Notes under the pieces: generated by a model
What the model was told of the DNA's origin: nothing
Database searches by the model: none
What the model saw: only the letters and a program-made list of their open reading frames with translations
Made by a program: the position numbers and the translations under genes
NCBI GenBank assembly: GCA_976551045.1
Contig: CDPCPM010000077.1
Location: forward strand, 2,108,001-2,172,000
Length of the DNA: 64,000 bases
Source of the DNA: Glaucostegus cemiculus
Lineage: Eukaryota
Reading direction: 5' to 3'
In this document: positions 1,463 to 25,600 of the stretch, piece by piece
Numbering within the stretch: the stretch's first letter is position 1
Layout of the letters: the number at the start of each line of letters is the position of its first letter

Positions 1463-3034
1463 TTGGGGTCCTCCTAATGCAATGCCAGATTGAGGCTTTG
1501 TCTGCTCAGTGGGCAGGAGGGACATGTTCACCAGCGCCCAGTGTTGACAAATTATTTCCAGAAGTGTTTCCTGAAAGAGGGGACTTTCCCTTTTCAAGAA
1601 TTTGATTTAGTTTGGTTTTATTACAGAGAACAAAGTTCATACTTGCCCCACCCCCCAGAGTCAGTTCAACCAATCTTTAATAAACCAAAAATAGCCTCTT
1701 GCCTCACTGTTACACTGCCCTCCTCCCCCTCGCCCCGCCCCAACAGCACACACTGATTCAGTTCCCTTTTGGTAGGAGTTAACCATCCCAGTACATTAAA
1801 CCTGGGACGATTAGCTTTTACCAAAGGGGAACTGAAATTACAGAGCACTTGGGATTCAAAGAGAGTTGGGGGGATGGGGGGAGAGGGGAGCTTTGTTTTG
1901 AGAATTTGCTGGAATAGTCAGGCAGATTTAAGTGGTGATAGGTTAACTCTGCTTTGTCAGTGCTTAGTACTTAGCTAAGCCATGAGTGGTGGAGATGATC
2001 TTACAACCCTAGACCAGTCACAGTCACACTCCTTGCTACGTCCCTCTCCAGAAATTCTGTCTGTCTGTCTGTTTCTCTCCTCTCAAGACAGTTTATTTTT
2101 GGGTGATCCTTTGTTAGAAATTGGCCTCGATATGTAGATAAACTGGTGCTTTTAGACGGGACTGTAAATTTCAAAGAGGAACAGAGAATTCGTAAAGCAG
2201 AGGAAAGGAACTGAAACTGAGAGAGGGAGACGGTCGAGAGAGACAAACAGCAGGGAGAGCTCTAGAACAGGGTGGAAATAAAGAAAGATTATTGTCAAAC
2301 ATGAATTGCCATCAGCAGATTCTACGAGGACCGGGGATACAGATTCAACATTTTTTTTGGGAGGGGGCATAAGAGAAAATATTTTTATATAAAGAGTGGC
2401 TTAAATCTGGAACCTATTCCCTGTCAGTATTAATCAGGGGTTTCAAAAGGGAAATGAATAAGAACTCAAGGGAAAATGGTCCACAGGGCTGTAAGGAAAC
2501 AACAGGGTAACTGGGACTGAATGGATTGCTCGACAAGGAGTTGTCACGGACCCAGTGGGCCGAATGGCCTGTATGTAATGATTCCGTGACAATTAATCAT
2601 ACTGATTAGCTTTTATAAGAGTTCTCGCTCCACTTTTTCACAGTGATGGTTGTCAACGCTGATTGGTCAGTGGCATAATTAGAAAAGGACGGAATGCAAT
2701 TGGACACAAGTCCATTTTGCATCCGATTGGTTATCAGAAGCGTTGCTGGACAGCTCAAGGAAGTTGATGCAGATAATAAAAAAGACTGGTAAATCCCACA
2801 ACACTGTCCCTCTGAAAAGTGCTTCTGAACTAAGGGCCATGACCAGGGCAACTGCTTCAAGGTGAGGGAATGTGTTGGTTTGCTTTCCACTATGTTCAAT
2901 TTCTCGGTCCCAACCTGGTGTTCTGAATCTGTGTACAGTGGCGTGGGAAGAGAATCTGAGAGAGAGCGCAGCATCAGGTCCAAAATCAACATGACAGATT
3001 GCAGCAGTAGATAACATTCTGTCACAGGAATACA

Positions 3035-3730
3035 AGATAATAGGAGCAGTAGTTGGTCACCTGGCCCCTTAAGCCTGCCTGCTGTTCAATAGTAATCATA
3101 GCTGTCTAAGCTGGCCTCAACTCCTCTTCTGTGCCAGTTCCCCATAGCCCTCAATTCCTCAGTCCTTCAAACATTCATCTATCTCCACTTTAAACACATC
3201 TAATGATCTGGCCTCCTCCACCCTTGAGGACAGAAACTTCCTGAGATCTACTACTGCCTGAGTGAAGAAAGTTCTTTACACCTCAGTTTAAATGACTGGC
3301 TCCTTATTTCATATCTATGATCCCAAGTTAGAAACTCTCCCACAAGAGAAAGCATCTCAACATCTACCCTATCAAGCCCCCTTATGTCTGAATAAGATGC
3401 CCCTCATTCTTATAAATTCCAAGGAACACAGACCCAAACTGTTCAGCCTCTCTTGATAGGACAACTCTCTCATCCCAGGAATTAGCTGGTGAATCCCTTT
3501 GGCCTGCCTCCAATGATATGATATCCCCTTTTAGGTAAGGGGAGCAAAACTGTGTGCAATATTCCAGGAGTAGCCTCGCCAACACCCTGTACAAGTGTAA
3601 CTTCCCCATTCTTAAACTCCACGCCTCCACATTAAAAACTGACATCTCATTTGCCTTCCTCACTACTTGTTGGAGCTGCTGGCTAACTTTTTGTGATTCG
3701 TGAACTACAACACCTAGGCACCTCTGAACA
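3035..3730 (-). mobile_element. Decayed CR1 LINE fragment
   Basis: Minus ORF 3382-3756 reads LHLYRVLARLLLEYCTQFCSPYL, the CR1 LVRPHLEYCVQFWSP motif. Confidence 0.8.
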
Positions 3731-6624
3731 AATGTACAACAGTTCAAAATATGCAAGAGTGCAATTTTTATGGCTTGTGTAAACTGTTGATGGTCTATGT
3801 TTTATTTCAGTGGTGTGGGGAGAGGACATGTAGGAACTTTGGATTATTTCCCATCACTCTGAAGGGCTTTATTATTCCTTTTAAGGTGTTTATTTTACAT
3901 TGATATCGAATGCTTCCTTGCTAATACTCCATGGCATCAAAAATAGCGGAAAAAAACCCAAAACAATAATTAAAAGACTGGCAGAAAAATAGTCAGATTT
4001 CAGGGAATTGCAGAAATACCTGACTCAGGATCCATTTCCCATCACCTTCAATCTGTACTGACATCAGAGCTTAGCAGCCCAACTAAGTAAACCTTCAGAA
4101 GCCACCACAGTAACACAATAAGTGTCCCTCATCCATCTCCCCAAGACAGGATGGGAGATCACAAACAATATCAGGTCACAGCATGGTAAAACATACCAGC
4201 ATGCAGCCAAGTTAGCTAAGAGATCACCCCTTCCACAACAGTTCCCACTGTACTGACAGGGGGAATATTACTGCACACTCTGGGAGCAAATGAATCACTT
4301 TAAAAGGCAGTCATTGCTGCTCTCGAGTGAGAGTGAGAGTTGGGAAACAAAAATCAGCCTCATTGGGACTTTGTGGATCAGATACTCACAGAAGAGAAGT
4401 AAACTAAAGCCAACAACCTGCATTTATCTTGTGCATATAACAGTGTAAGTTTTGTCAAAGGATTTCCAGGGATCAATTTCAAACAAAAAAAAATTGAAAT
4501 CACCAAGTACAAGGAGATACCAAAACTGATGTGACCAAAAACTTGGTCTAAGGGACAGGAATTATAGAGGGTAGAGTGAGAATGGTGGTGGGAGGAGTTC
4601 CAAAGCTTGGAGCCAAGATACTTAGACGTTAATACTAGGGATGCACAGGAGGGCTGGGGAGAAGGAAAAGGCTACAGACACTTGATGTTGGAGGAGTGGT
4701 GATTACAGTGATTACAGAGTGGTGATGTTGGAGGAGCCTCATATAACTTAAAGGAACAGAAAATGAATAGAGAGACAATAAGAACAGCTCCAACAGAATC
4801 AGGTGAACACTCAGACAGGTCAGAGATCCAAGAGACACTAATCCAGTCTTTACTGTCCGTGTTTGTGATCGGACAAAAGGCTTTACAATCTAGAAAGAAG
4901 CTGTTCTCATTGAAATGTACAAAATAGTGTCTGATATGGAATAGGAAATCCCAGAAAAATACTTTAAGCCGCAGGGGACTAGGAAAATGTCTCACTGGTT
5001 CAAACGAACTTTAGGATTGACATCAAGAACTTATTTTTTTCCCACACAAAGCATGGAGTTGGTGGAAAAACCCTGGAACTGAAGAGATATAACTGGGTTT
5101 AGCAATGTAGGGAGTGGTGCAGGGCAGGGGAGTGGAAATGGTGCTTTCAAAGTGTTTACAGTGACCAAGTTTATCTAATCGACTCAAAACGTTAACTGTT
5201 TCTCCCTCCGCAGATGCTGCCAAGTCTTCCAGCCCTTTCTGTTTTTATTTAATCCTATTAGTCTTTTATAATCTTGTAAAAAGACAGGCTTGGTAGTTCA
5301 AAGAGGCGTGGAAAGTTGGTTCCCCCACACAACTGGTTAGGAACATATATTCGGGCACGTAGGAGTATAGAGGGATGTTGAAACTTAGTCCCCACACGGT
5401 CACCTTCAGACAGTTCGCAAGGAACAGTTATCAGGAGCAACAAACGATGTGCAGGAGGAACTCAGCAGGTCAAGCAGGATTTATGGAAGAAGAACAGTTG
5501 AAATTTCAGGTTGAAATGCTGCATCAGCACTAAAGGTGTAGAGGGAAGATAGCCAGTGTAAAGTGGAGAGGGGGAGTGGCAACACAGGGGCCAGTTGGTG
5601 ATTGGTGGACCGAGGAGGAGTGAAGGGTAATGGGCAGCTGGAGCCAGGTAGGGAAGGGGAGGGGTGAAGCTGGGAGTCAAGGAGGTGGAACCAGGAGTGT
5701 TGAAGTAGACAGATTCTCTGAAAGGTAGGCAGCACACAGCCAGAAGGAAACAGATACTCAATGTGATTGCAATTCCAGGTAAAATAAAACAAGCCCACTG
5801 CCAGGAAATGTTCTCACCCTCTCTAAAGACGTCTACACAGTTGGCTGGGGATCACATACTCTTATGAGGTCAGGCCTGACTTTAGCCAACTCTGGGTCTG
5901 TAACTGTTTCCCACCCTTTAGCTTTGTTTGTTCTGCTACAATCAATGGGAGGTCATCTGATTGTTCACAAATGTAAAGGATAACAAGAATATTCCCAATG
6001 AGATCTTTAGTGTTTCAGAACACGGAAACCAATCCAGCAATGGAAGGTGGCTGCGGTACTGACAATGAGATTCAATCAAGCCTAATGTGTGGAGATCTTT
6101 CCAAAGGTTGTAACCTAAATGAAGGTCTTTCTTTCCAAGGGACAGTGTCTGAAATAATCACACACCATTCTAATAGAACAGGTATAAAACAGGTAGTAGT
6201 AGAACACATACGGGCTGTGTCTTTCCAAGTGTACCTATTTTCAATGGGACAGGAGGTATTAAAGATTATTGGCTGTGTGCTGTTTTTTCTAACAGTGACT
6301 TAGTTGGCTGATGATCCCTCTTTTAAGGTTTGATCCTTATAACAGTGTGCTCACCCAACTGTAAGCCTCCCCAAATTATATAGGGATTTATTTCCACATG
6401 AAGCTCACCCCCCACACAGAGCACTTCCTTCCCAAGCTAGTACACTGCTCCTGGTAATGTTCCAAGAAAGAAGGTCACTGCGTCAAAGTTATGTTCACAG
6501 AACTGGACTGCTGCCAACTGTCACTTGTTTGGGATCTGATTAGCCTGTCAGCTGAAGGCCACATGATACCAACTTAAAATGAAGCCTTGAGAGTGCCAAC
6601 TGTTGACTGCATCCATTTCATCTT

Positions 6625-6960
6625 GGGCTTAGTTGGGAGTGTTCTCACTCTGAGCTCGAAGGTGGTAGGTTAAAGTCCGGCTCCCGAAATCTGAGCACAA
6701 AAGACTCAGGCTGACGCCGAGTGTGAACAGAGGGAGTGATGCACTGTTGAGATGTAGGTTCTTCACGTGGGACATCAAACTGCTCTCTAAGGAGGATGTA
6801 AAAAATCCTCAGGTGCCAGCTACAAGAAGAGCAGTATTCTTCCCAGTATTCCAGTCAATAATTGTCCTGTACCAACACCCCTAACATCAGATTACCTGGT
6901 CAGCATCACTGCAGTCTTTGTGGCAGGCAACTGGGTTGTCCACATTATAATGGCACGTAC
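6625..6960 (+). mobile_element. DeuSINE-type (SacSINE1-like) SINE, diverged
   Basis: tRNA-like head (ctctgag..gaaggt..ggttaaagtcc) then ctgagcac..ggctgac..gagggagtg..gcactgt core; related copies at about 7460-7690(-), 17445-17600(+), 26040-26360(+), 34100-34470(-), 48445-48750(+). Confidence 0.6.
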
Positions 6961-9900
6961 AGTCAGAACAAACACACATTATTTGAAAATCGTTTGGAGA
7001 CACCCAGAAGAAAGAAAAGTGCTAAATAATTTCCAATTTGTTCACTTTTTGATTTCATTACTCAGAAGCTGATAAAACTTGGTGCACAGGGCATTTATTC
7101 TAGAAGTGTTAAATTCACTCAACCTTGTTTTATAACTCTCACATACTTAACTCCAGTAACAGCCATGCCTTTGAACACTTGAGTGCAACAGGACCCACTC
7201 CTTATGAGGAACAGAGAGGACAATGGGAACATTAATGGTTGTTCCCATAATGGCCTCATTTTAATGGGTCAACAACTGGAGTAAATGAATGTCTAGTCCT
7301 TGGTTGGTCACTTTACGTTGACTGACATGTCTAACAGCTAATGCTGGCCAGCAGAATGAATTTTGATTTCATTAATTTCTAGAGAACGTTGTTTACGAAG
7401 CTAACAACTGCTTGATAGAAAAAAAATTCCCAGTGGGATAGTGGGTATCTCAGAACCCTGTCCCTCACCCAGGAAACTTGGGAGAGCTCACCTGCAATTT
7501 GAAATATAACCACATAATACCCAGAGGGAGGAGACGAGGTCCCAATATCAAGTGTCATCTGGAAGACAACACCTCCAACCCTGCAGCACTCTTGTTGTAC
7601 TGCAGTCAATACATTTATTAATTCTCTGGAGTGGAACTTGAACCCACGACCTTCAGATTCAGAGGTGAGAAAGCTACCCACTGAGTCAAAGAGCAGGGCA
7701 GATGACTCTCCTCCTCCGCTCCCACCAAACGCCTAACCAGTCCTAGTGATCACTTTGTAATGCTGAGAAACTCTGGTGGCTCCAAAGTTCCCTCCAACTC
7801 AGCTGTCTACGCTGGGGATCGGGAAATCTTTCAAACTATCCTAAGGGAAGGCAGGGAGACCAAAGTAACTCCCCAAAGCTGGCTCACCAAGCCCTTTGGA
7901 AAAGGTGGTCTGCTACTGTAAAGAGAAGGTCAAGATGTCTAACACAGGTCTTTTGAAATTATGGAAGATTTTGATACGGAGAGATTTCCACTTGTACAGA
8001 ACAGCGTAACTAGAGGCCAAGGTTTATCATCACTGACTTATATGACGTGAAATTTGCTGTTTTGCGGCAGCAGTACAGTGCAAAGACACAAAATTACTAT
8101 AAATTACAAAATAAATAGAGTGCAAAGAAAAAAGGAACAATGAGGTAGTGTTCATGGGTTCATGGACCGTTCAGACATCTGACGATGGACGGGAAGAAGC
8201 TGATCATCACCAAGAAATCCAATAACACATTCACAAGAAACTTCTTTACTCAAGAAGTGGGAAGAATGTGGAACTCAGTCCCACGAGATGGAGATGAGAT
8301 GAAGTCTGGCACCTAAAAAGGGACAATGGACAAGTAGTTGGGGAGAAGGGGATGGACGGTCACTCTGATGTATCTAGATGAGGAATGTTGTGTGGATTAC
8401 TAATGCTGGCAACACTGAGTTGGACTAAATGGCCTGTTTCTGTTCCATATTGTATAGGTAGGCATGAAGGTCGGCACAGACGTGATGGGGCGAAGGGCCT
8501 GTTTCTATGATGTACAACCCTACTCTGTGTAACCCGAAACAAAAAGATTTCTTTTTAGAAAAGGTGATGAAGACTGAAATTCCAGTGGCACGGTGCTCAG
8601 GAAGAGGTGACAGCGGACGATGCTGCAAATGGTCACGGCTTGAAAAGTCTGGGCACAAACAGAGCAGGAAACGTACAGCGACGCAGGCAGAGAGGGTCAG
8701 CTGCTCCAGCCCAGGGGTCCAGGGAGGACTCGGGGTGTGAAGGCTACGCAGCAGTGAGCTGCGTGAACCAAGAGAGCTGGCACAGTGTTGGTTACTCTCT
8801 GCTGCCTCTGAGGTCAAAAACAAGACCGATATTCTGTCTGCTTCCCAGCGATCCCTGCCGACCTTTATATTGGCACTAATAGATCCAGAGACCTGCCCAA
8901 ACCATAAAACCCTTCAAGTCTGCAAGTATTCACCCTCTCAATTCACAACCATCACTTGGGTGACGTAAGGAAAGTGAACAGATCAAGAAAGGAGATACAT
9001 TTCTAGGGGTTGTGGGGAAGAGAGTAGACGGGGGATAGAGGACAGAAAGGGGAAGCTGTCACTTTCAGCGTTGGTCTGAGTCTGTGAATATTATCAGACA
9101 CCGAGCCCGCAAAAGGTAAGTGGAAGATAAGCAGTGCGGATAATGGGAAGGACATTTCCTTGACAGCTCTGGATCCTTCAGTCTGGAACGTCACTCAGCA
9201 GTGGACAAAAGTCCCCCAGGAGCCAATTCAATAGGACAATGGAGGTTCCTGAACGGCCTGGAGGCTGGACACAGGATAAAGTCTCTGTCTTTCTTCATTG
9301 CAAAAGCTTTAGAAATCATTTGAGTGACAATTATCATTTTCCACATATCTCCTCATGACATAGTACGCTATTCTGCCAATTGCACCTATGTCAGCTCACA
9401 GAGCAATCCCCATTTCCTCACAAAGTTTCCTTGTAACCTTAGGTCTCCACGTTCCCCAGATTACTACTGCTCACCTCCAAACTAGGGGCAATTTAGTGGC
9501 CAATTAATCTACCAACCTGCACGTCTTTGACATGTGGGAGGAAACTAGAGCATTCAGAGGAAACCCAGGCCTTCACAGAGAGGGCGTGCAAACTCCACAC
9601 ACAGTACCGGAGATCAGGGTCACTGGAGCTTACTACCTGCACCACCTAAGGCATGCTGCCTAGCCCCACTGGAGTTAGCTGAGGAGCTGGTGACACAGAA
9701 ATAAATCATTACTCAGAAGTGATTTCCTTTGAAGTGAAATAAATTTCTGCTCTCACCTCGAGACTTCCCCTGAACTGCTGCAGCATTAACCCTGAGAGTG
9801 CCGACTGTGTGTGCAAGTGCAGTCATACGTGCACACTCACATTAAACCATAAACACTTGCTCAATCACACACACTCATATCCTTGCACACACTCAGACCT

Positions 9901-10249
9901 GAGCAGCAGACCATTTATACCAGCGTTACAATGATCCCGAAATTAATTTCAGCGATTTTCGGGAAGCAGCATACTCAAACACGGTTACTCATTCTCACCC
10001 ATGGAAAAGAAGCAAGTCTCCCAGCTGCAGGTGGGAAGACCCAGTGATAATCCAGTCATTTATCTCACTTGCGTGTGTGGGAGCTTGCAGAGTGCAAGTT
10101 GCACGGTGCACTCCCTGCAACACAGCAGTGACTGCACTTCAACAAGTGTTCTGGCTGCACTGTGCTTGGGGACTTCCTGCTGGAAATGGTGATGCAGATT
10201 AAAAATCCATTTGCACTGGAAAGCGGAAGGGGTTACAGTCCAAAAGAGA

Positions 10250-10635
10250 AGGAAGGTGAGAGGAGACGTGATAGAGGTGTACAGAATATTAAGAGGAATA
10301 GATAGAGTGGACAGCCAGTGCCTCTTTCCCAGGGCACCAATGCTCAATACAAGAGGGCACAGCTTTAAAGTAATGGATGGGAAGTTCAAGGGAGATATCA
10401 GGAAGGTTTTTTTGCCCAGAGAGTGGTTGGGGCATGGAATGCTCTGCCTGGGGTGGTGGTGGAGGCAGGTAAATTGGTCAAATTCAAGAGATTGTTAGAT
10501 AAGCATATGGAGGAATTTAAATTAGAGGGATATGTGGGAGGAAGGGGTTAGATAGTCTTAGGCGAGGTTTAAAGGTTGGCACAACATTGTGGGCCGAAAG
10601 GCCTGTATTGTGCTGTACTGCTCTACGTTCTATGT
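10250..10635 (+). mobile_element. CR1 LINE 3' fragment
   Basis: ORF RGDVIEVYRILRGIDRVDSQCLFPR...TRGHSFKV; tail gtgggccgaaaggcctgt...gttctatg. Confidence 0.85.
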
Positions 10636-12515
10636 AAACGTGGTGGGAGGGAGGGCCTCCCCCTTAATACACCTTGCGTACCTAAGGGTGTGAATGCATC
10701 ACGTCAGTGAGCTGTGTCAACAACGAGCGCCGATGTGGTGTTTACATTTCCCAAGACTCCAAAATCCTGGCAGCTAAAGGGGCGAGAGGAATTGCGGGTT
10801 CAGCGGGGAAGAGGTTTTCCACCACTGCTCATGGGGTAGAAGGAGCAGGAGGGCATTTTCACCTCCATTTCCCCTCACCCAACTCCAGCTGCCACTCCCC
10901 CCAGCTATCTGGGATATAGTGGGTTAACTAAGGTACACGGTGACCATAACTGTGTACAGTGCTCCCAAATTGATCTAACCCAGGGATCTGAAGACCCCAT
11001 GTCTATTGGCTCTGGATTATACTATTGAATGTATAATGCATTTTAAAATCCTACAATAGGTGTAGAATGTAATAACATAACACAAATAATTGTCCAAATG
11101 CAAAATACCGCAGATCCTGTAAATATTAATAGAAAAGGCGAGAAATACTCTGTAAAGCAGGCAACAGCTGTGGGGAGAGAAATAGAATTAACGTTTCAAT
11201 TCAATGACCCTTCACCAGAACTGATGGAAGGTCATCATCACATTGAAACATTGGCTCAATGTCTCTCTCCATAGATGCTGCCTGACCGGCTGAGTATTTC
11301 CGGCATGTCCTGTTTCCATTACAGTTATTCTTTGTAAATAGGCTGTTTGAATTCAGGACAGACTCATCCCCTTATCAAAACTCTTGACGGAAACATAAAA
11401 TTAAATGACCCTTGGTGTGAAAGGCACAGAAGAAGAGGTATAGCTTGCAGTTTCTACATTTCTCCCCATTTCACAGCAGTCACTTTATATATTCCCTATG
11501 ACATTACGAAGAGACAACACACCAGTTACCAAAGAAAATCTGATAACGGAGCACACACAACACTCAACATCTTGGTCTAAGACGCTGGTTTTCAAAAATG
11601 ACATGGAGGAGGAGAGGGAATACGAGGGAATACTTGGCATCTGAAGGCACAGACATCAAAACAAACAAAGAAAACTGGGGATATGCAGGAGGCAAAAACT
11701 GGATGAGAGTGGAAATCTCAGAGGGCTGTCAGACTGGAGGAAGTTAACAGGGATAGGGAAGGTTTGGGCTTTGGACGGGTTTTAAAATGAGAGTGAGAAT
11801 GTATTGCAATTGGGAGAGAAGTTTGTCTTTGGTCAATGACGTTAAATGGGCACTGAATTTTGGCTGTTGATTGGATGACTCCCCTGACATTTGACTGATG
11901 TGATGAATAGTCCAGATTGAGCCTCTTTACTGGACAAATCCATCACCAAGTCAGCCCGCCATCCGATCCATTGTGCATTGCCATTCCCGATCTGCACACA
12001 GAGCATCACCACATCTTGATGCTGAGAACTGGAGGGATTCCTGGGATGGAGGGTTTGTCATAAAGGGGAACACTCAGCGGGTTGGATCTACACACTCTAG
12101 AGCTTAGGAGATCTCACTGAAACATTCACAATCCTGGAGGAACTTTGAAGGGAAAAATGCTTTGAGGATATTTCACTAATGGGGAAATCTAGAAAGTGGG
12201 GCAAATTCAGAAGAAAAGAATAATCATTTTAGAATGGTTTGAGGAGGAATGCCTTCTCTCAGCGAGGAGGGAATGTTTGGAGAGTCATGGATGCCAAGTC
12301 ATTAAACATTCAAGGATTCTCTGGGATACAGAATTCCAAAAACTCCCAGCCCTCTGAGAAGAAATTTAAGCCTGAGGTAGATGTTTGGACCAAAGAGGAA
12401 CTGTGGGTTATGGGGATTATTCAGAAAGCGGCCAATCACCCCCTCCATTGTAATCTTATGGAATGGCAGAGCTGACTAGAAAAGGCTAATCCTTGCTCGT
12501 AAGTCGAGAAGTCAC

Positions 12516-12895
12516 GTGTTCTTATGGGGCGGGGATCTTATTGAAAACTACTGGATACTGAAAGGCCTGAATAGAGTGGACGTGGAGAGGATGTTTCCAT
12601 TAGTGAGAGAGTCCAGGATCCAAGGGCACACCCTCAGAATAAAGGGACGTCCCTTTAAAACTGAGATGAGCAGGAATTTCTTCAGCCAGAGGGTGTTGAA
12701 TCTGTGGAATTCATTGTCACTTAGAGTGTATTTAAAGCAGAAATTGATAGGGTCTTGATTGGTAAGGGGGGGGGGGTTAAAGGTTAGGGGGAGAAAGCGG
12801 GAGAATGGGGTTAAAAACAAAATCAGCTACGTTTGAATGGTGGAGCAGACTTGATGGGCCGAATGGCCTTATTCTGCCCCTATAATCTTATGGTC
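12516..12895 (+). mobile_element. CR1 LINE 3' fragment adjoining the NAB exon donor
   Basis: ORF GDLIENYWILKGLNRVDVERMFPL...FFSQRVLNLWNSL and tail gggccgaatggcctt; ends about 25 nt from the splice donor at 12917. Confidence 0.85.
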
Positions 12896-12917
12896 AAGTA
12901 GATAATGATGACTGTAC

Positions 12918-13691
12918 CTCGTGCAACGTGAGATTCTTCCCATCTTTCCGTTTGGAGTCAAACCTCCCGTAGATGGCGCTGAACTTCCGGATCTCCTCTT
13001 CCTTCTGTGGCTCCTGGTCGCTCATCTCGAAGATGTGGCCGAGGGTTTTGGCCATTTTCTTGTTGCTGATGAAGATGCACTCCAGCTCCTTGGGCTCCAT
13101 CCGGGGCACAGTCTGGATGAGGCGCTCGGCGCAGGCGGCGATGATCTGGATGACGTCCTGGGTGAGGGGCAGGGAGGGGCCGTCCTTGGGCGGAGAGTGG
13201 GGCTCCTCCTTGGTCACCGTGATGACGTTGGAGATGGTGGGCAGGTGCTGGCCAGAGGCCACCGGCTCCGTCTGAGACGAGGTCTCCGTCCGCCGTGGCG
13301 AGGCGTGGTTGTTGCCGATCTCCTGTGTGCCGGCCAGGTTCTGCGTCAGACGCGACGGATGCTCTTGTTGGGCGCTGGCGGAGTTGGGGTCCGAGATTTT
13401 GGCAATGGGGATGCTGCTGGCTGGCAGCTTTGTGAGGGGCTGGTTGAAGGCCGAGGGGTTTGTGATCCACTCCTGCAAGGCTTTCTGGAGGCGTCGGACG
13501 TGCAGCGGTTTGCTGGACATGCCCACCAGCGCCATGATCTCCAGAAACTCCTCCTCCGCCGCATCGCACAGCTGCTGGACGTCATCTCCTCCCTGCTGGA
13601 TGAAGGCATCGTAGTAGAGGAGAAGATTCGCCCGCTGGAGGACCCGGTAGAGTTGCAGCTCCCCCAGTGTGGATGGCTGAGATGTGGTCAT
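12918..13691 (-). CDS. NAB-family (NGFI-A/EGR1-binding protein) co-regulator, first coding exon (258 codons): NCD1 plus N-terminal part of NCD2
   Basis: TLGELQLYRVLQRANLL..FIQQGGDDVQQLC..FLEIMALVGM..KPLHVRRLQKAL is NCD1; GHIFEM..KEEEIRKFSAIYGRFDSKRKDGKNLTLHE is NCD2. ATG in GGGGCC-ATG context; donor GAG/GTACAG after LTLHE (phase 0); acceptor cttctgtctacag gives exon start 13727. NAB1 versus NAB2 orthology is unclear, so no symbol given. Confidence 0.95.
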
Positions 13692-13727
13692 GGCCCCCGG
13701 GGTGAGATCGCAGCCGGCGAGCGGTCC
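13692..13727 (-). other. 5' leader portion of the NAB first coding exon (36 nt, in frame, no stop)
   Basis: Pyrimidine tract plus CAG at 13728-13730; leader reads GGA CCG CTC GCC GGC TGC GAT CTC ACC CCG GGG GCC before the ATG. Confidence 0.8.
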
Positions 13728-13822
13728 CTGTAGACAGAAGCAACAGAACCTTCAGATCCCACCGACCCCTCCACCGTAACCAGCGCAAGGCAAACGCAGC
13801 CAGCAATGCCGCACCTAAGGCA

Positions 13823-14110
13823 GGCACGGTAGTGTAGTGGTTAGCATAACGCTTTACAGCACCAGCAACCCGGGTTCAATTCTGGCCACTGTCTGTAAGG
13901 AGTTTGTATGTTCTCCCCGTGTCTGTGTGAGTTTCCTCCGGGTGCTCCGGTTTCCTCCCACATTCCAAAGACGTACAGGTTAGGAAGTTATGGGCATGCT
14001 ATGTTGGCGCCGGAAGCGTGGTGACACTTGCGGGCTGCCCCCAGAACACTCTACACAAACATGTATTTCACTGTGTGTTTCGATGTACATGTGACCAATA
14101 AAGAAATCTT
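13823..14110 (+). mobile_element. tRNA-derived V-SINE-like element, near full length
   Basis: A/B-box head (gtagtggttagc...gggttcaattc), V-domain tttgtatgttctccccgtgtctg..gtttcctccgggtgctccggtttcctcccaca, tail aataaagaaatctt. Confidence 0.85.
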
Positions 14111-14291
14111 AACAATGCAAAAAGCACTCCTAGACGCTTTGAAGGAGCACAGACCAAGAAAGCTGCTGCTTGAGGAGATGTGAGGACAGAGGTTGGGTTT
14201 CAGGTAAGCCCTGAAGGAGGGCGGAGAGGATCAGAGAGAGAATCCCAGTGCAGGATGGCAAACTGCTGGAGGAACTCAGTGGGTCAGGCTG

Positions 14292-14615
14292 CATAGAACA
14301 TAGAACATTACAGCACAGTACAGGCCCTTCAGCCCACAATGTTGTGCTGATATTTTATCCTGCTCTAGGATCTATCTAACCTTTCCCTCCCACATAGCCC
14401 CCCCATTTCTCTATCATTCATGTGTCTATCTAAGAATATCTTAAATGTCCCTAATGTATCTGCCCCCACAACCTCTTCAGGCAGTGTGTTCCACGCACCC
14501 ACCACTCTCTGTGTAAAAAAACTTACCCCTGACATCCCCCTTACATCTTCCTCCAATCACCTTAAAATTATGTCCCCTTGTGTTCGCCATTGTTGCCATG
14601 GGAGAAAGTCTCTGA
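14292..14615 (-). mobile_element. CR1 LINE 3' fragment
   Basis: Minus ORFs FFTQRVVGAWNTLPEEVV and NTRGHNFKV; catagaacatagaa tail; tail matches the 10250-10635 copy. Confidence 0.85.
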
Positions 14616-15629
14616 CCGTCTGCGGAGGCAGAGGGGTGGTTGATGTTTTGGGTCAAGATGCTGCAGCAGACCAAGAGTGTGAAGGGGAGATGCCCAGTTT
14701 AAAGAGCTGAGAGGGAGGAGTGGAGTTGGGAGACAGCGGCAGGTGGGTGATGGGTAGACACAGATAAAGAGAGAGAAAGCAAAAGGGGGAGGGTGGAGGT
14801 GGAGGCAGAGGCTGGAGGTGATAAATGGAGACAGGAGAGGCTGCAGATACTGGAATCTGATAAGGAAGGTGATGCAGAACCAGATAAGGGAGGGGAGGTG
14901 GGCAGATGGAGCAGGATGAGGAGGAAGAGAGCACCAGAAGGTGTGGTGTTGTATGTGATGAAACTGGAAGGGGGAAGGGAATAAAACTAGGCATTCCAGA
15001 GCCTTGGCAGCAGATAGTGCAACCACCAACGGAAAGACAATTAAACGAGGGCTTGAGTAGGAGACAGGAAGCCAGAAATGGAGGAACAGAGAGATCTTGG
15101 CAGGGTGGAGGGGATTTCAGAGACAGGAAGGGGCAAGGCCATGGGAAGGGGTAATGCCAGTAAGCGTCAGGAGGGATCTGAATAAAAAGGTGACAGAGCA
15201 GGACGTTGGATGTGGTTCTCTCCTGCCTGTCTGTCTGGGCCATGGTGTCCCCTTCCTCTACTCTACAGTCCATCCCAAAACATTGGGATAATGTTTAGCT
15301 GGGACTGAAGAACACTTATTGGCCACTTCCAGATTCAGGCTCAAAGTGAATGCAGGCAGTGGGGATAAAGACCTCTCTCACGAGAGCGCTCTTGTGCTTT
15401 GGGTTCACACGCAAGGAACTGAATTGACAGAACTAAAAAAAAATTGTCTTTAAAAGCTGGCACATAGCAGAGAATGAGAGAAGGGAACTTAACTCTCAGC
15501 ACATCGTGTGACAGCTCCAGATCACTCAGCCTGCTCAGAAGGTCCAGCGTTTGAACCCCATTCCAAAAACTTGACTCCACAGGTCAGTCTTCTCCCTTCC
15601 AACAGCAGTGAGCCCCAGTACCAGAACAA

Positions 15630-16030
15630 AGGAGAGTACAGCACGGGAACAGGCCCTTTAGCCCACCATGGCAATGCTGACCACAATACCAACTGCACAT
15701 CTGCCTGCACATGGTCCCTATCCCTCCAACCAGGCCTGTCCTAATCCTTCTTAAATGCTGCTATGGTATCTGCTTCCACCATGTCCCCTAGCATTGTGTT
15801 TCAGGCACCGACCACACTCTACATAAAAAAAAATGCCACGTAAATCTCCTTTAAACTTTCCATCTCCCACCTTAAACCTATGCCCTCCGGTATTTGACAT
15901 TTCCACCCTGGGGAAAAAAGACCCTGACTATATTCCCTCTCTATGCCTCTCATCATGTTATAAACTTCTATCAGGTCTCCCCTCACCTTCCAATGCTCCA
16001 GAGAAAACAACCCAAGTTTGCCCAACCTTT
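15630..16030 (-). mobile_element. CR1 LINE 3' fragment
   Basis: Minus ORF KLGLFSLEHWKVRGDLIEVYNMMRGI. Confidence 0.8.
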
Positions 16031-19000
16031 CCTTCTAGCTCAGGATGTCACCTTTCCAATGGGAAGTGGAACCACAGACACACACAAAACACCACACAGT
16101 TCCTTTTGAAGGAGCAAAGAAGTTTTCTCACTGGTCCCGGCCAACGTTTCCACTGGGAGCTTCAATAATACAGATCAACTAGCCATTTATCCCATCGCTG
16201 CTTGCTTGCACTTCTTGTGCCAAAATTCCTGATGCAGCTTCCAACTAATTGTCAGGGATGTTCAGAGGGTTGTATCGGCTGGAGTCCTGGGGGACAACTG
16301 AAACATCCTAAGGGGTCTTGCAAGGATGGACGTGGAGAAGGTGTTTCCTCAGAATCGGGAGAGTCACTGTTTAAATACAAGGCCCAATAAGAACGATGAG
16401 GTGAATATTTTCTCTCCAAGGGATGTGAATTTGGAACTCTCTTCCACAAAGGGTACTGACAGCAGAGTCTTTGGAAGTTTTTTAGATAGGGTCAGGTGGA
16501 GACTTGACACGCAAGAGGGTAAAACCTGATGCAACTTCCAAATGACTGTGAAGGATGTTCAGGGGTTGTGAAAGGTGCTCCATAAAATGAGGCCTCACAC
16601 TGTTTCCTTGACTTAGCAGCAGTGGATTGTGCTAGAGAGGAAACGGACACTACAAAGCAAGGCCCAACAGAGAGGCAGAAGGGTTTCACATCCAAGATGC
16701 CCTGATCACTTGCTCCACCATATTTTCCTTCAGTCTCTCTTGAAGTTTACTGGCACCATCCATCCCACTGCCTCTCTGGCTGGTCTTCTCAAGTTATCAA
16801 TAATTTCTGTTGTAAATTCATAGCAAGATATAGCACAGAAACAGGGCCTTCAGCCCAACACGTTCACATCAACCATCAACCACTTACTTACACTAATCCT
16901 ACGTTAGTTCCACTTTTTATTCTCCCTAAGTTCTCATCAACTCCCTGCTGATTCTATTACACACGAGAAGCAATTTACAACAAATTAAACTACCAACACA
17001 TATGTCTTTGGAACATAGGAGGAAACTGGGGCACTCAGGGGAAACCCAAAGGGAGAATGTGCAAACTCCACAGTGACAGCAGCCGAGGTCAGGGTCAAAC
17101 CCAGGCCCCTGGTGCTGTAAGGCAACATCTCTACTGCCTGGTCCACTGTGCACCCCACCCCCCACATTGTGCTAACCAAGTTAAATCTTCCCCTTCTGCA
17201 TTCAAGCTCCCGCCCTGATCTGCAGATCAAAGTCTAGTGCAAGAACAAGCGATAAAATAAAGCCTAGACAAAAACTCTGAAACTGTCCAGATTTTAGGTC
17301 AAGTTAAAAAGCCCCAACTTTTGAATGAAAAGCCCCAGGCAGTTTTCAGAAATTTTTAACTGAAACATCTGCACTTTATCCACAATGAACAGCACAAAGG
17401 TTTCTGACACATTTTTGAATGGTTAAGAATGTGGTTGGGTGACAGCCGTGCCTCACTTAGCACCACCCTCTGTCTCAAAGTAAGAAGGTTGTGGGCCAAA
17501 GTCCCCTCCAGAGACTTGAGCCCAGAGCTCCAGGTTGTTGCTCTGACACAGTACGGAGGAGTGCTGTACTGTTGGAGAAGCCTTCGTTCAGATGTCCCCA
17601 TTGCATTTGCATGTGGACATATAAAATGAACCCACTGCTGGAAGGTGGGAGCAGACTGGGTGGCTGTTTTATGACCAGAACAGATACAATGGGCTGAATG
17701 GCCTCCTATATTGGAATTTTTTCTGTGGACCTAAGGGAGAGATGTACTGGCACCCCTGACCAGTACTCACACATCGAAGAAAGTATAACCAGAAAGAACT
17801 TTTGGTTTCCACATTCTCTACATTACAACAGAAATTACATTTCCAAAGTACCCTCATTGGCTGTAAAGCAAAAAGAGACATCCAGAAAGGGGTGTGAAAG
17901 GTGCTATGTAATTGCAAGCTTTCTTTTTCTTAAACCTCTGCTAAAAAGACCCGATAGGAGTGGGTCTGTGACCAATGCTCATCGCCATGACAATGCGAGC
18001 TCGGGAACTAACAGATAATGGAACTTGCACACAAAGTACAGATTAGAAGCCACAGTGTGCCCCCCCCCCCACCCGCCCCCGCCCCACCGGCCCTGCAAAC
18101 CTGCTCCGCTGTTTATTACAATCACGGCTGAGCCAACCCAAAGTCTGTGCTCCCACGGCATCTTTTACCCTTTTGCAGGTCAAGTCTCCACCTGACCCTA
18201 CCTTAAAAACTTTCAGAAACTCTGCTGCCTTGAGGAAGAGAGTTCCAAACACTCACATCCCTGAGAGAGAAAATATTCACCTCATTGGTCTTATTGGACC
18301 TTGTATTTAAACAGTGACCCACCCCCACCCCCCACTCCCCCAATTCTAGATTCTCCCACCTGAGGAAACACCGTCTCCGTATCCATCCCTGCAAGACCCC
18401 TTAGGATGTTTCAATTGTTCCCCAGGACACAAGCCAAGCCTGTCCAACCTTGTTTCAATAGACAACTTGCACATTCCAGGTCTTAATCTAGCAGGAGTAG
18501 GCCACTCGGCCCCTCAAGACTGCTCCATCAATTAATCGTCAATGGCTGATCTGTACGTATGTCAAGCCCTCATTCCTGCGTATCCATGGCAACCTTCTCT
18601 CAACTGCATCAAAATAAATAACGTCCCTCCTTAAACATTGAGGCCAATGGCATACACAGTACTCCAGAAGTAGTCTCACTGTGCCCTCTATAACTGAAGC
18701 AAAACCTCCCTACTGCCAGAGTTTGTTGGAGAGAAGTGCAGTGTCATTTCAAACTCCAACACCAGGAACAAGTTTTACTTTTACTTGTGCAAACTCAAAA
18801 CTTTACCACAGATAAGTACAGGTAAAATAATGGCAGGAAACAACAAGTACTAATTATATCCTACACTTCGATCCTGTTAAAAGAAGAAATTCACACATCC
18901 TTCAGGTGCTCAAGATGTTCCAAAGCATTTCACAGCCACTGAACCACTCCTTAAGTGTAAGTTCACTGCTGGTTTTGTAGCCCACTGCAGTGGGACCTGT

Positions 19001-20479
19001 TCCTCCCTTCATACTGCTGAGCTGACCCACACCGGAAACTCACTGTATAGAAATATCTGAGCTTCAAAGTCTGGGCTCAAAGGTGCAATGCACAAATACA
19101 CCAATAATCAGTTAAGCAGTTATTTCCCCTGTGAAATCAAACCTGTTTACACAGACAGAAGGCAGCTCAAATGGCCGTGTTGTCATTGAATGTGTGTTGT
19201 GTGGTACGAGCAGCAGGATTGCAGGAGACACAACTGCAGTCAATTAAAAGGAGTGCGATATTCTTTAATTTATCAGCTGAATTCCACCACCAATATTTCC
19301 AGTGTCCCATAAACACCTATAAAAAGTAAGATTTGCATAGCGCCTCTCATAACCTCAAAAAGCACTTTGCAGCCAATAAGACTATCTTCCAATGTAGTTA
19401 TTGTTGTTCCTGTGAACAGTTCGTAACCCCAACAGTTCGCAAGTCAGTAATGTGGCCACGAATCGAGTTCCCACATGGCAGAAGATGCCTGCAGCCCCAC
19501 AGCAGCCGGCAAGTCCATCCTGCCTGGTATGTACGGGCTGGACATAAGTCAGGTGTTTGTAACCTGGGGAAGACCTGTACTGAACTAGTGCACTGGAAGG
19601 TCCCACAAACAGCAATGCAAGTTACCAAGTAATCTGGTCCAGTGGTGTTGACCACCAATCAGAACACAAGGGAGAACTGCCCTCCACTTTCCCAAGCCAT
19701 CATTACATGTTCATTGCAGCAGCTGTGACAGTGCAGCATGTCCTCACACCTGCACCACGGAGCCCGCCTGGAATTTTGTGCCCAAGTCTCTGAAGAGGCC
19801 TTAAACTCACAACCTGGTCGTTATCTAACTTTCTCCACATTTTTGATTTAGATTGTAAGCATCATTGCCTGGGACAAATTGGTAACAATTTTTTTAAATT
19901 TACAGATATGGCCATTCAGCCCACCTGGTGTGTGGGATGTAGTCAAGTTCCACACAAGTGTCCTCCCACCTAACCCTACAGGTACACTTCTAGTCCTTGT
20001 ACCTATCCAGCTGCTCTAACCTTCTGAATGTCAAAAAGGGCATCTGTTTCACTTTCTGACCCAACATCTTTTAGCGCGTCTCAGGATCCAGTCTGTAATT
20101 TGCCTGTAAAGGAACTGGGGACATTTTACCCTGGTCAACAGCACTATATTTTGCTACACATTGGCTGCAGTGAGGACTGGAGACCCACAGCTACTGCTAG
20201 CGTTCCCCCACTTGCCAAGCCCAAGACTGGCACTCTGAATCAGATACAGGTTCCCTTATGAAGCAAGACACTGACCCGGGCCTGAGGATAATCCAGTAGA
20301 AGGCACCCGTGACCTCAGAGGGACCCATGATCCTCCCCCCCTGGCCTCTTGCACACCCCCTAATTTAATCTCTGCTCCACTGGGGAGAAGCCAAGTCTCT
20401 AACCTCAGACATTCCCTCCCTCAGCCTCTCTACCCACTTCTCCTCCCCTGTGCTCCTCACAAATGGGCACTTTCAGAGA

Positions 20480-20840
20480 ACATAGAAACATAGAACAATA
20501 CAGCACAGGAACAGGCCCTTTAGCCCAGCCTGCCTGTGCCAACCATGATGCCAGTCTAAGTAATCCCATCTGCCTGCGCATGGTCTGTATCTCAGTTCTC
20601 TGCCTGTTGACGTGTCTGTCCAAATGCCTCTTAAGCATTGCTAGCATATTCATTTCCACCACCCAACCTGGTAGTATGTTCCAGGCACCTACCACTCTCT
20701 GTGTAAAAAAAACTTGCCTCACAAACCTCCTTTAAACTTTCACCTTAAACCTATACCCTCTAGTGTTTGACATGTCCGCCCTGGGAAAAGGATTCTGACT
20801 ATTTACCATATCTAAACCTCTCATGATCTTATATACTTCA
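20480..20840 (-). mobile_element. CR1 LINE 3' fragment
   Basis: Minus ORFs FFTQRVVGAWNILP and EVYKIMRGLD..NTRGYRFKV. Confidence 0.8.
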
Positions 20841-20889
20841 CTTGGGCTACCATCAAGTTTTATTTCATATTGCCCTGAAGTAGTTTTAT

Positions 20890-21125
20890 TTAAGATTTCC
20901 TTATCAGTCACATGTACATCCAAACACACAGTGAAATACATCTTTTGCGTAGAGTGTTCTGGGGGCAGCCCACAAGTGTCGCCACGCTTCCGCCGTCAAC
21001 ATAGCACATCCACAACTTCCTAACCCGTACGTCTTTTGGGTTGTGGGAGGAAACCGGAACACTGGAGGAAACCCAGGCAGACACGGGGAGAACGTACAAA
21101 CTCCTTACAGACAGTCGCCAGAATC
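20890..21125 (-). mobile_element. V-SINE-like element, same family as 13823-14110
   Basis: Reverse complement matches the 13823-14110 body and tail. Confidence 0.85.
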
Positions 21126-22049
21126 TGAAGTATGTTGGGTCCTTTTACCACCTTAAAGGTGCTTTGTAAATGCAGCCGGTTGATTGTTGCGGGGCTCACT
21201 AGTGCACACAATAGAAAGTGACAAGGTCCGGCTAAAGAGGATCAGTTCCTTCATCAAACAAGACAGGACACATGAAGGTAACTAAAGGCACCTGGGTTCT
21301 GTTTGACAGCAAGCTGTGCAGGCCTGAGATGTGTGAGGAGCGGAGAGCAGGAACTGAGTAAACAAAGGGGGAATGAGAGGAAAGAGATAGCTGGAAAAAT
21401 AATTAAGCTGGTTCTTCTGTGAGAAACTGCAGTGCTGCAAGTATTCCAAATTATATATTAAAATTCACAGTCTAGGGCACGGCCTCTCCTAAGGCAACCT
21501 CAGGCACTTCCCCAACCATCACCCCCCACCCCCCCCTCAGGATCAGGGCTCTGCCTCCACTACAGGAGGCACCTGCAACCAAACTCATCCATCTGCACTG
21601 GAGACGGGGGGGTAAGAGCACGTCAAGCTTTCATCTCACCTACCCAGCCAGAAGTAATCTCTACCTACGATCTTAACGTGAAGGGGGCCCTTTGATGTCA
21701 TTTTGGCTTGTGGTTCGAATTCCTCACATAGTTAACAAGAATTGGCCAATGCATCTGGCCCTGCAACTGCAAGTATTAGCGTTCCTTTACAGCTGGGGTA
21801 ATTAGGAAGGTCCTTGCATCCTTCTCCATTAGAGCTGCTACCATTGCCAATTCTGTTTGCCTCTGAGTCACTACCTGTTGCAAAAGCAAAAGCGTTCGTC
21901 TTCACTTGGGGGAAGAACCTTGAATGAGGGACATGGTTACAAGACTGGGGGCGGGGTTGAGGTCTGGAGGGACCTTCTGGCAGAGGGTGGTATTTCTCTG
22001 GAAGTCTGTACCCCGGAGGGTTTGGAGGCTAGATCACTGGGTGTACTTA

Positions 22050-22315
22050 AGATAAGATGAGATCTTTATTAGTCACATGTACATTGAAACACAGTGAAAT
22101 GCATCTTTGCCGTAGTGATTTTGGGGGGCAGCCCGCAAGTGTCGTCACGCTTCCGGCGCCAACATAGCATGCCCACAACTTCCTAACCCGTATGACTTTG
22201 GAAAGTGAGAGGAGACCGGAGCACCCGGAGGAAACCCACACAGACACGGGAAGAACGTACAAACTCTTTACAGACAGTGGCCGGATTTGAAGCTGGGTCA
22301 CTGGCGCTGTAAAGC
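22050..22315 (-). mobile_element. V-SINE-like element, same family as 13823-14110
   Basis: Reverse complement matches the 13823-14110 body and tail. Confidence 0.85.
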
Positions 22316-24539
22316 ATTAAAGGGGAAGTAGATAAATTTTTGGAAGATCAGGGAATTTAGGGTTATGGGGAACTGACACAGAAGAGGAGATGAGGCCTGG
22401 GGCAGATCAGTCACAATTATACTGATGGTGGGGCAGGCTTGAAGGGCCAAATGCTCCTATTTTCTTTCGTCCTGATGTCAGGTCCAGTATCCCCCATCGC
22501 CTCTTAGGGCACCTTTCCTTTGGCAGTCTGTAGTGCTGTGCTCCTAGTACTGCAGAACAATACAGCCCACAAAGAGGCTATTCAGCCCAAAATGTCCATG
22601 CCGGTTCCATTTAAAACCACCCCCCTGCGCCTATCTTCAACCTGCAATTATGCTCCTGACCGTGAATAGGGACCAGCTTGTGGGCAATGCACTCCAGATC
22701 ATAACAGCTCACTGTTAGCTTGAGTTGCCTCTGGTTATTTTTCCTGTTATCTTGTATCGTTCATCAAACCTTTATCTGATAAAGCACTGATTTCCAAGGA
22801 ACTGTTTCGGGGAGAAACCTTGCTACAACACTGTACTTGGTCGGCATGGACGAGTTGGGCCAAAGGGCTTGTATGACTCTGTGACTTTCTTTGTCCCCTC
22901 TCTTTATCATAACCTGTAAATTAAAAATTGTTACCGTCACATGTACTGAGATACACTGAAAAAAGTTTTACCTGCAGTGGAATGCAGAATAAAGTGTCAC
23001 AGCTACAGGCAGACAATAAGGTGCAAGGCCATAACAAGGTAGATTGTGAAGTCAAGGGTCCAGCTTATCATTCTTAGGGGACCGTGCAATAGTCTTATAA
23101 CAGCGGGATAGAAGCTGTCCTTGAGCCTGGTGGCACGTGCTTACAGGCTTTTGTAAAACAGTTTCTCTTTTGTCATTTGAACAAGTCCCTTCAGGATTTT
23201 GAACATTTCCATCAGTGCTCCTTCTCTCTGCTCCAAGGAGAAGGATCCAGTTTCTCTGTGGCCAAAGTCCTCCCTCTCCTGTCCTGCTATTCACATATAC
23301 TACTTCCTTATGGCATTGGGGGAGGCCATTCATCCCATCAAATCCATGCTGGCTCTCAGAGTAATCCCATTCCCCCATGTACTTCCCCATAACCACAATT
23401 CTCTCTATAACTCTCTCTCTCTGCCTGTTACCCTCCTCTTCTACCAGCCATCCACCTACCAGGTGTCATTTAAGGACCAGTTAACCTATTAATCTTTGGC
23501 ATGTGGGAGGCAAATGAAGGACACTTGGGCAACCCACGTGGTCACTGGGAGAATGTGTGAACCACACAGGCAGACCGGGTCACTGGAGCTGTGAGGCACC
23601 AGCCCTATCTGCTGTGCCACATATCCCTGGATGATAAATGAATGGCAGAGCAGGACTGAGGGGCTGAATGGCCTACTCCTGGTCCTATTCCATCGACAGT
23701 GCAAGGCCCAATCATGTCCTCAAACATCTTCCCTGGAAGGTGAGTCAGAGAGGATCTTCTAACCAAAGCAATGAAGACCACTTAGTCCATCCCTCCACCT
23801 GTGAATTCAACAAGTAGTGGCAAATCAGCTAATTATTTACTCCACATAGAGTATTACAGTTTGAAGGTCACTAACACATCCTGAAAAGTGATTGGCTGTT
23901 TGAGTTGGATACCCACAATCATACATCGAAGTGTCTTTAATCCACCAGTCACACTGCCCCTCCCCCTCACTTGCCCAGGAGTGTCCAAGCCTCACACAAG
24001 AGGTCAACTCTTGGTTTCGCTCTTGTTGCGTCCTGATAAGATGCAAGTTCCCAAAGTCACTGGGAGTCCGTGATCTACCCACCAGTTACTGGAGAATGAG
24101 CCAACTTCACATAGTCTGTTAGTTAAAATATTTCTCTGCAAGCATCCAGTCAAAACAGTGTTGGCACTTGTTCAAACCAAACCCCTAGTCCTATTAATAG
24201 CCTGCATTGCTCAAACTGTTCATTTCCTTACAAAGCCCCTCATTACCCTTCGTAAGCCCCTCCCATTTGTCCTGTGCACTTGTCTTCAACTATTGCCTAA
24301 TCTCTCATGCTCCCCGTCCTTTCCAACGTTGTTCAGCTCATCACTGCCTTTAACACCCACAGCTTCTTGTTCAGATCTGTGCTCAGTGCCGTTGGAATTT
24401 TCACTTGTCCCTCCTCTTTCACTGAAGTTCGGTTGTAAAGCACAGATGATGGACCTGAGCTTTCTTGTGTCAAGTGGAGGAGATCAGTTGCATTGTCCCT
24501 GTTTCCCAATGAAGGTCCATGGATCTTCACTCCATCTCC

Positions 24540-25600
24540 TCAGGCAACCCTTGGGGTCCAGGATGACTTGCTTCCACTGCCAGTTAGTGGGCTCTGGTGT
24601 AGCTGAAGACCCCAATGTGGGAGCCAAAGACCGTGACAGGGGTGGGTCAGCAGGCTGTGGACAGGACTTGGCAGGTTTTTTAGTGCTCCTTCCACTGTTT
24701 GTGCTTGGCATCAGGTAACAGGCTAGAGTGGCAATGAATGTCTGAGGAAAGCCAAGACTGAGGATTCTCCATAATCCCTCTTGCACTGAGAAAGGCCATG
24801 CACAGTGATGGGGGGTGCCACTTCCTACAGTTCCCACGGATCTGCCATCCACTATACTACCTGATGGGCAGGATCCATTGGCAGGGCAAGTGAACTAACG
24901 TCAGAATCCACTCCAGGAGCAACATCCCTACTGCACAGGCTCTGACGCACAGGTCTTGTTGTTTACATATCAGACATCAGACTCCTGAGTAGGAACTCCG
25001 AGCTCTGTCATAGCAACAGGTTTCCAGGAGGGCAGAGAAAGTGCTTCAAGGATCTTCTCAAAGCTTCCCGGAAATAATTTGACTCTGGGAGCAGAGAGCC
25101 CACCACTGAGAGGGGAGGTGGAGGAGGATACTGCCAATGGCCTTCCATGTGGCAGACAGCATGGAGACCCCTCCGTAATTAGTGCAATTAAACCAGTCTC
25201 CCTTCCTGAAACTAGTCACGATAACCACATTAGTGAGATCTGCTGGCATGCTCCCAAACGGGGGGAGAAGAGGCTATGAGTTCAACCCAGAAGTACTTCA
25301 ATGCCACATCTTTGAACTTCATCTGGGACTCCCAACTGCTTCAAAGCCTTGTTGTTTGTCAGCTGTTGGATGCACAGCCTTTCCAACAGCCTGCCAGGCT
25401 GGGGTGACACAGGATAATGCACAACATCAAAGGCAGGGTCTCAGCCCAGGAGTTTTTCAAAATGCTCCTTCCAGATGCAGACCACCTCCCTGTCCTTGAT
25501 AAGCCTTCCTCCAGTCGTGGGCCCTCAGCAGGCTGGGTTCTTACGTGTTTGGGCTATCGAAGGATGTCAGCTGAAGAACGCATGCTTCACACAACAGCCA
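24540..25600 (-). mobile_element. Decayed RTE-clade LINE with an internally inverted piece
   Basis: Minus ORF 25058-25249 VIVTSFRKGDWFNCTNYGGVSMLSATWKAI resembles RTE IVTIYKKGDRSDCGNYRGISLLS; about 24870-25075 reads as RTE C-terminus on the plus strand. Confidence 0.65.

Follow-up and report, generated by a model that had tools for sequence, protein, structure and literature searches.

A 64-kb window of Glaucostegus cemiculus DNA (64,000 nucleotides, the whole stretch analysed here) contains the first coding exon of a third vertebrate NAB gene, which lies outside the NAB1 and NAB2 pair and which we will refer to as NAB3. With a probability of roughly 80%, we read NAB3 as a strongly conserved gene present across chondrichthyans, likely the HoxB copy of the family, likely lost in bony vertebrates and likely an EGR co-repressor.

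The coding exon lies on the reverse strand at 12918..13727, exactly where the initial annotation had placed a NAB exon, and all of the motifs quoted there are found in its translation. An acceptor AG stands before position 13727 and a GT donor after position 12918, and a 36-nt 5' UTR leads to an ATG at 13691 that opens 258 stop-free codons (codons 1-258). The exon encodes the NCD1 (SAM) domain (residues 6-83; 13443..13676, reverse strand; Pfam PF04904, E 2e-44, 149.9 bits against a curated cut-off of 24.3) and the N-terminal part of NCD2 (residues 176-258; 12918..13166, reverse strand; Pfam PF04905, E 4e-29, with a match to PDB 2yuf), the remainder of NCD2 being encoded past the left end of the window. 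NCD2 scored above its curated cut-off both in the exon alone (101.5 bits) and in the full orthologue (183.7 bits). When aligned to the protein of the sawfish Pristis pectinata (XP_051894632), the translation differed at 2 of 259 residues (99% identity).

Evidence for splicing came from contigs of relatives in four runs from four studies (X10, X16, X20 and X21), whose RNA status is guessed or unrecorded; among the matching runs listed, none is recorded as RNA. These contigs matched the coding exon at about 90-96% identity. All four stop at the donor and then continue into the next NAB exon, and three of them (X10, X20 and X21) run past the acceptor into sequence matching the window from 33402 onward. 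There, a non-coding exon 1 occupies 33402..33570 (reverse strand; 5' limit approximate) within a GC-rich island and ends in a canonical GT donor. The relatives' contigs and repeat mapping delimit a repeat-rich intron 1 of 19.7 kb (13728..33401, reverse strand). Only the start of intron 2 (1..12917, reverse strand) lies in the window, the four contigs all running into the next exon, and no NAB3 coding exon after the first was found within the 64 kb. Contig depth, which is no measure of expression level, was equal at the coding exon and the 33.4-kb exon (X10, 36.2; X20, 18.5); the exon 1 joint was not among the rows listed. The X10 contig differs from the window exon at 31 positions, of which 29 are synonymous and 2 non-synonymous, and the resulting dN/dS of 0.019 indicates purifying selection. 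From these data, we conclude that the exon belongs to an intact, spliced gene under purifying selection. Repeats cover 9,753 bases of the window (13830-14112, 14292-14603 and 53 further intervals), and many of them are abundant in sequencing runs. We also considered EGR sites in the promoter: 10 of the 27 one-mismatch matches in the window fall within 33.3-34.1 kb, but they lie in GGC/G-rich runs with no perfect match, and this candidate was rejected.

The last five coding exons of PSMD3 are on the same strand (reverse; 62650-62531, 60217-60114, 59804-59649, 59110-59060 and 56309-56232, the last with the stop codon; Rpn3_C, E 5e-12; PCI, E 3e-8). The NAB exon had been described as lying next to PSMD3; it is downstream on the same strand as claimed, but 42.5 kb separate it from the PSMD3 stop codon, and non-coding exon 1 is about 22.7 kb away from that codon. 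In a Pfam scan of all 177 stop-to-stop frames of at least 48 aa in 33.9-56.2 kb, which could overlook short cytokine exons, no gene was detected between PSMD3 and NAB3 exon 1; the matches were one to ALKBH8_N and one weak match to DUF6652. ALKBH8_N matches occur in similar-looking repeat frames at 27130-27630 and 37534-37797 (reverse strand), and we presume that these frames are most likely retroelement remnants and not a gene. The available text of PMC7717901 gives the gene order in human and coelacanth as PSMD3-CSF3-MED24. The order downstream of PSMD3 in the window is unlike this, with no CSF3-like gene in 33900-56200. According to the same text, two chondrichthyans have lost the PSMD3 gene next to MED24; that the PSMD3 exons are intact here suggests rearrangement.

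To follow NAB3 across species, we used protein searches. The top 19 protein clusters (80-99% identity) were all chondrichthyan, and the vertebrate matches that came after them were at most 57% identical (best 120 of 992). Together with their members, these clusters contain NAB3 orthologues from 18 named chondrichthyan species, including the chimaera Callorhinchus milii. A query with the C-terminal region returned 20 matches, which were the same 19 clusters and one hemichordate protein, although its reach was limited, as it missed the lamprey proteins. Among 408 further proteins, the 40 nearest to NAB3 fell into 28 at 0.89 identity or above and 12 at 0.64 or below, with none between. No bony-vertebrate NAB3 was found in the first search (best 120 of 992), nor with the full-length or the C-terminal query. 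Given this identity gap and the chondrichthyan-only top matches, bony vertebrates have likely lost NAB3.

NAB1 and NAB2 are each recorded as genes of their own alongside NAB3 in nine chondrichthyan species (P. pectinata, Hypanus sabinus, Hemitrygon akajei, Heterodontus francisci, Carcharodon carcharias, Scyliorhinus canicula, S. torazame, Stegostoma tigrinum and Mustelus asterias); those of the sawfish lie on separate contigs (NAB1, 150.0 Mb; NAB2, 16.4 Mb; NAB3, 33.8 Mb). No chimaera NAB2 was seen among the matches listed. The sawfish NAB3 orthologue carries the RefSeq name "NGFI-A-binding protein 1-like", and the "NAB1-like" label on chondrichthyan NAB3 is a mislabelling. No description of a third NAB was found in the literature searched, which included few subscription papers, or in the accessible part of the whale shark genome paper (PMC8455134), and the accessible parts of PMC11979771, PMC10948149 and PMC8040251 held nothing on NAB. 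According to the accessible part of the skate paper (PMC10115646), chondrichthyans retain 19 ohnologues that bony fishes have lost; NAB3 would share this pattern of retention and loss, and NAB may be among those 19.

To place NAB3 within the family, we built a tree from 221 NCD1 and NCD2 columns and 52 rows. NAB3 (100/99), NAB1 (99/97) and NAB2 (100/99, including all nine elasmobranch NAB2 rows) each formed a clade, NAB1 and NAB2 grouped together (100/99) with NAB3 outside them, and all vertebrate rows grouped together (99/97). A 518-column tree, from which 16 of the 52 rows were dropped as long, partial or redundant, had the same topology, with one lamprey gene weakly joining NAB3 (82/82). 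Tunicate-like, sponge, coral and arthropod proteins were left out of all trees. Nesting of NAB3 inside the NAB1 or NAB2 clade, which the initial annotation had named as an outcome that would count against it, was seen in neither tree, and AU tests rejected both NAB3 with NAB1 (p 0.0006) and NAB3 with NAB2 (p 0.0006). When NAB3 was paired with either cyclostome group, neither placement was rejected (p 0.13 and 0.40). In both trees, the NAB3 duplication follows the divergence of the invertebrate outgroups and precedes the jawed-vertebrate split. As the gene is shared with the chimaera, a recent lineage-specific duplicate is excluded, and the rate of change within NAB3 is low, at 0.01-0.10 changes per site counted from its crown. 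The exon had also been said to change positions shared by NAB1 and NAB2. This is borne out for CDAAEEE, which all 10 rows of the NAB3 clade carry, but IRKFS is not diagnostic, being found in reedfish NAB1 and in four of five cyclostome rows while the chimaera NAB3 has IRKYS.

The part of NAB3 that most distinguishes it from NAB1 and NAB2 is its C-terminal tail. A model of the full protein predicts two helices at residues 326-369 and 373-421 (pLDDT about 96), which form a putative hairpin, and a further helix at 469-490 (pLDDT about 75) that carries the motif DEGLR; outside NCD1, NCD2 and these helices the model is disordered chain. We built profiles of the tail from invertebrate segments (hairpin, 30 of 31 rows; DEGLR helix, 26 of 31 rows). 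The hairpin profile scored 80-84 bits in nine of nine NAB3 proteins, from -2.5 to 35 bits in NAB1 (sharks, fishes and a caecilian, 16-35; a bird and rodents, about 0) and below zero or without a match in bony NAB2. The DEGLR-helix profile scored 27-30 bits in NAB3, 12-17 bits in bony NAB2 (11 of 11) and below zero or without a match in NAB1. The NAB3 scores are inflated, as the training proteins had been found with NAB3 as the query, but the alignment directly shows the same pattern. Among jawed-vertebrate NABs, NAB3 alone thus appears to keep the full ancestral C-terminus of hairpin and DEGLR helix, unlike NAB1 and NAB2, whose tails are complementary remnants of the ancestral tail, split between them. 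Its C-terminus also accounts for the outcome of a full-length NAB3 search of 1.8 billion representatives, in which two lamprey proteins and crinoid, hemichordate, brachiopod and amphioxus NABs outranked any NAB1 or NAB2.

The hairpin (residues 326-421) aligns as far as coral and sponge NABs. In Pfam, no family matched it above the cut-off (a weak Nab1 match occurs in 14 of 57 members), the Atlas held nothing usable, and the sole Foldseek match at E <0.001 was an NCD2 structure. Cyclostome tails vary: one lamprey gene keeps both hairpin and DEGLR helix, the other lamprey gene keeps the hairpin only, and one hagfish group has neither. The lamprey and invertebrate NABs (Petromyzon, Branchiostoma, Saccoglossus, Anneissia and Lingula) share the full NCD1-NCD2-hairpin-DEGLR architecture with NAB3 but are only 42-56% identical to it, and NAB3 falls inside the vertebrate clade. 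The NAB1/NAB2 "mosaic" described by the initial annotation is an unneeded idea, the residues in question being ancestral states together with states specific to the NAB3 clade.

Compared with the two known vertebrate paralogues, NAB3 is close in its folded domains. NCD1 and NCD2 are 86% and 58% identical between the sawfish NAB1 and NAB3 pair and 85% and 57% identical to those of coelacanth NAB2. NAB1 (HoxD/STAT1-STAT4 paralogon) further resembles NAB3 in the match of the NAB3 NCD2 model to PDB 2yuf, in the weakened hairpin of shark and fish NAB1 and in a SUMO-type motif near the NAB1 C-terminus. It differs in its clade and chromosome, in having no DEGLR helix, and, in birds and rodents, no hairpin signal either; NAB3 in turn is below the cut-off of the Pfam Nab1 family PF04902 (14.9 against 25 bits). 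NAB2 (HoxC/STAT2-STAT6 paralogon; X-linked in elasmobranchs) shares the DEGLR helix, which lies inside the C-terminal part that the available text of PMC11554739 describes as the CHD4-interacting domain, but it forms a separate clade, is without the hairpin, and in elasmobranchs is short, with an NCD2 that is eroded in most species.

NCD1 is the EGR-binding, oligomerising part of NAB proteins. Judged from its sequence, NAB3 is likely an EGR co-repressor, a brake on EGR-driven genes. Its NCD1 would bind EGR proteins and oligomerise, and its NCD2, in which the core motif is intact, would repress transcription; the protein also has one SUMO-type motif. NAB2 represses EGR1 through NCD1, NCD2 and the C-terminal CHD4-interacting domain, as stated in the accessible part of PMC11554739, and the DEGLR helix common to NAB3 and that region of NAB2 is a candidate CHD4 contact that may recruit CHD4/NuRD. 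The predicted 95-residue helical hairpin, present in lamprey and invertebrate NABs too, may add a surface for partner binding or oligomerisation, one that would be eroded in NAB1 and absent from NAB2.

A different function could be served by the same gene. NABs of invertebrates can be co-activators and work with zinc-finger factors other than EGR proteins, and the closest full-length matches of NAB3 outside chondrichthyans are the lamprey, crinoid, hemichordate, brachiopod and amphioxus NABs. Its orthology being as described above, NAB3 might use the ancestral hairpin mainly for co-activation or for binding zinc-finger partners outside the EGR family. The literature listings, as far as their text extends, name MAB-10 with LIN-29. 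We regard this as unlikely, given the 85-86% identity of its NCD1 to those of NAB1 and NAB2, the intact core motif of its NCD2 and the DEGLR helix that it shares with the repressor region of NAB2.

The origin of the gene can be approached through its linkage. In Hemitrygon (80,845,220 bp) and Hypanus (69,719,156 bp), a single contig carries both NAB2 and NAB3, which are on separate contigs in each of the seven remaining three-gene species. Joint location of HoxB and HoxC on X1 has been reported for myliobatiforms alone (bioRxiv 2025.06.08.657570, a preprint, in its available text). Because NAB3 lies outside NAB1 and NAB2 and is joined to NAB2 on a contig only in the group with a reported HoxB-HoxC fusion, it is likely the HoxB-paralogon ohnologue from the early vertebrate genome duplications. 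The initial annotation had proposed a HoxB-paralogon copy; the ancient origin and the position outside NAB1 and NAB2 are upheld, and the HoxB linkage is indirect, as it is the PSMD3 neighbour, the contigs of other species and the preprint that point to it.

Other reports, each in its available part, bear on these chromosomes. NAB-related genes have been noted at the STAT1/4 and STAT2/6 clusters (PMC3296744), and Stat2 and Stat6 are X-linked (PMC12318234). In the little skate, Nab1 is on chr7, Nab2 is on chr40 beside two STAT genes, and chr27 carries Hoxb13, Stat3 and Stat5b (PMC10115646). A stated upper size of 73.0 Mb for myliobatiform X chromosomes and a range of 16.4-28.8 Mb for those of non-myliobatiforms are given in bioRxiv 2025.02.26.637739. 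The lower and upper ends of that latter range are matched by the NAB2 contigs of sawfish (16,413,646 bp) and of the white shark (28,814,942 bp), and Mobula hypostoma NAB3 is on a contig of 73.08 Mb. In the stingrays, and in the devil ray going by its NAB3 contig, NAB3 would lie on the fused X1, so that NAB2 and NAB3 would both be X-linked. The NAB2 contigs of Heterodontus (horn shark, 37.8 Mb) and Rhincodon (whale shark, 120 Mb) exceed the published X range, a misfit that assembly version, misplacement or translocation could explain.

The duplication that produced NAB3 can be set against published pairings of the Hox chromosomes. The legend of Extended Data Fig. 8 of PMC10972751, in the part available, groups Hox clusters A/B against C/D, a pairing that predicts the NAB tree observed here, and we infer that NAB3 arose at the first duplication, with HoxA/B on the NAB3 side and NAB1 (HoxD) and NAB2 (HoxC) on the other. 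The master table of the same source pairs CLG-B chromosomes A with C and B with D, and for Dlx its file records a "swap relative to master table"; that pairing predicts NAB3 with NAB1, a grouping that the tree rejects. In the hagfish, NAB genes map to chr4 and chr5, which the first duplication places on opposite sides of CLG-B, and PSMD3 maps to chr8, on the same CLG-B side as chr4.

The conflict between these published pairings, together with a local gene order that differs from that of human and coelacanth, a skate chr27 that is noted as also touching linkage group H and the failure of the AU tests to reject either cyclostome placement beside NAB3, leaves some room for an ancient third NAB of other derivation, either by a small-scale duplication before jawed vertebrates or as a HoxA-paralogon copy that moved to the HoxB chromosome. 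We consider such an origin rather improbable, as NAB1 is on the HoxD chromosome and NAB2 on the HoxC chromosome, the hagfish genes fall on opposite sides of the first duplication, and the NAB topology fits A/B against C/D. It is scarcely credible that NAB3 is a NAB1 or NAB2 that has moved or diverged fast, a duplicate that arose recently in one lineage or a chimeric gene made of NAB1 and NAB2, as its RefSeq name and the motifs it has in common with NAB1 (DAFIQQ) or NAB2 (RVLQ and DEGLR) might suggest, when true NAB1 and NAB2 stand beside it in nine species, both trees and the AU tests speak against either pairing, the slowly evolving gene is shared with the chimaera, and RVLQ and DEGLR also occur in lamprey and invertebrate NABs.

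In 13 elasmobranch species, NAB2 models are 259-416 aa long as annotated; three of them, which end just past the donor position of exon 2, may be incompletely annotated. A comparison of sawfish with catshark gives an NCD2 identity of 91% for NAB3, 95% for NAB1 and 34% for NAB2, whose NCD1 is 82% identical. We observed that elasmobranch NAB2 keeps NCD1 while, in most species, the core of NCD2 is eroded (0.75 changes per site on the batoid branch), unevenly so, the erosion being slight in Pristiophorus and severe in batoids and carpet sharks, and that it lies on X-sized contigs in most species. Elasmobranch NAB2 may be a decaying or decoy protein. A tentative extension, which we think doubtful as a whole, is a reciprocal replacement of a conserved co-repressor in the two lineages: bony vertebrates would have lost NAB3 and use NAB2 for CHD4/NuRD-linked EGR repression, and elasmobranchs would have kept NAB3 while X-linked NAB2 decays to an NCD1-only decoy or dominant negative, with the NAB1 and NAB2 tails as complementary halves and the hairpin as an undescribed NAB domain found across animals.

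The vertebrate NAB family has been treated as having two members, and NAB3 is a third that was hidden under the name "NAB1-like". The remnant tails of NAB1 and NAB2 single out the short DEGLR helix as a possible point of contact with CHD4, and some NAB2-STAT6 tumour fusions partly lack the NAB2 C-terminal region that bears this helix (PMC11554739, in its available text). Retention of ohnologues by chondrichthyans alone is already known as a class, to which NAB3 would add a case. As the likely HoxB copy, NAB3 would occupy the STAT3/STAT5-HoxB position that had been empty in the NAB-STAT paralogon, and it provides one more gene tree that bears on how the four Hox chromosomes are paired.
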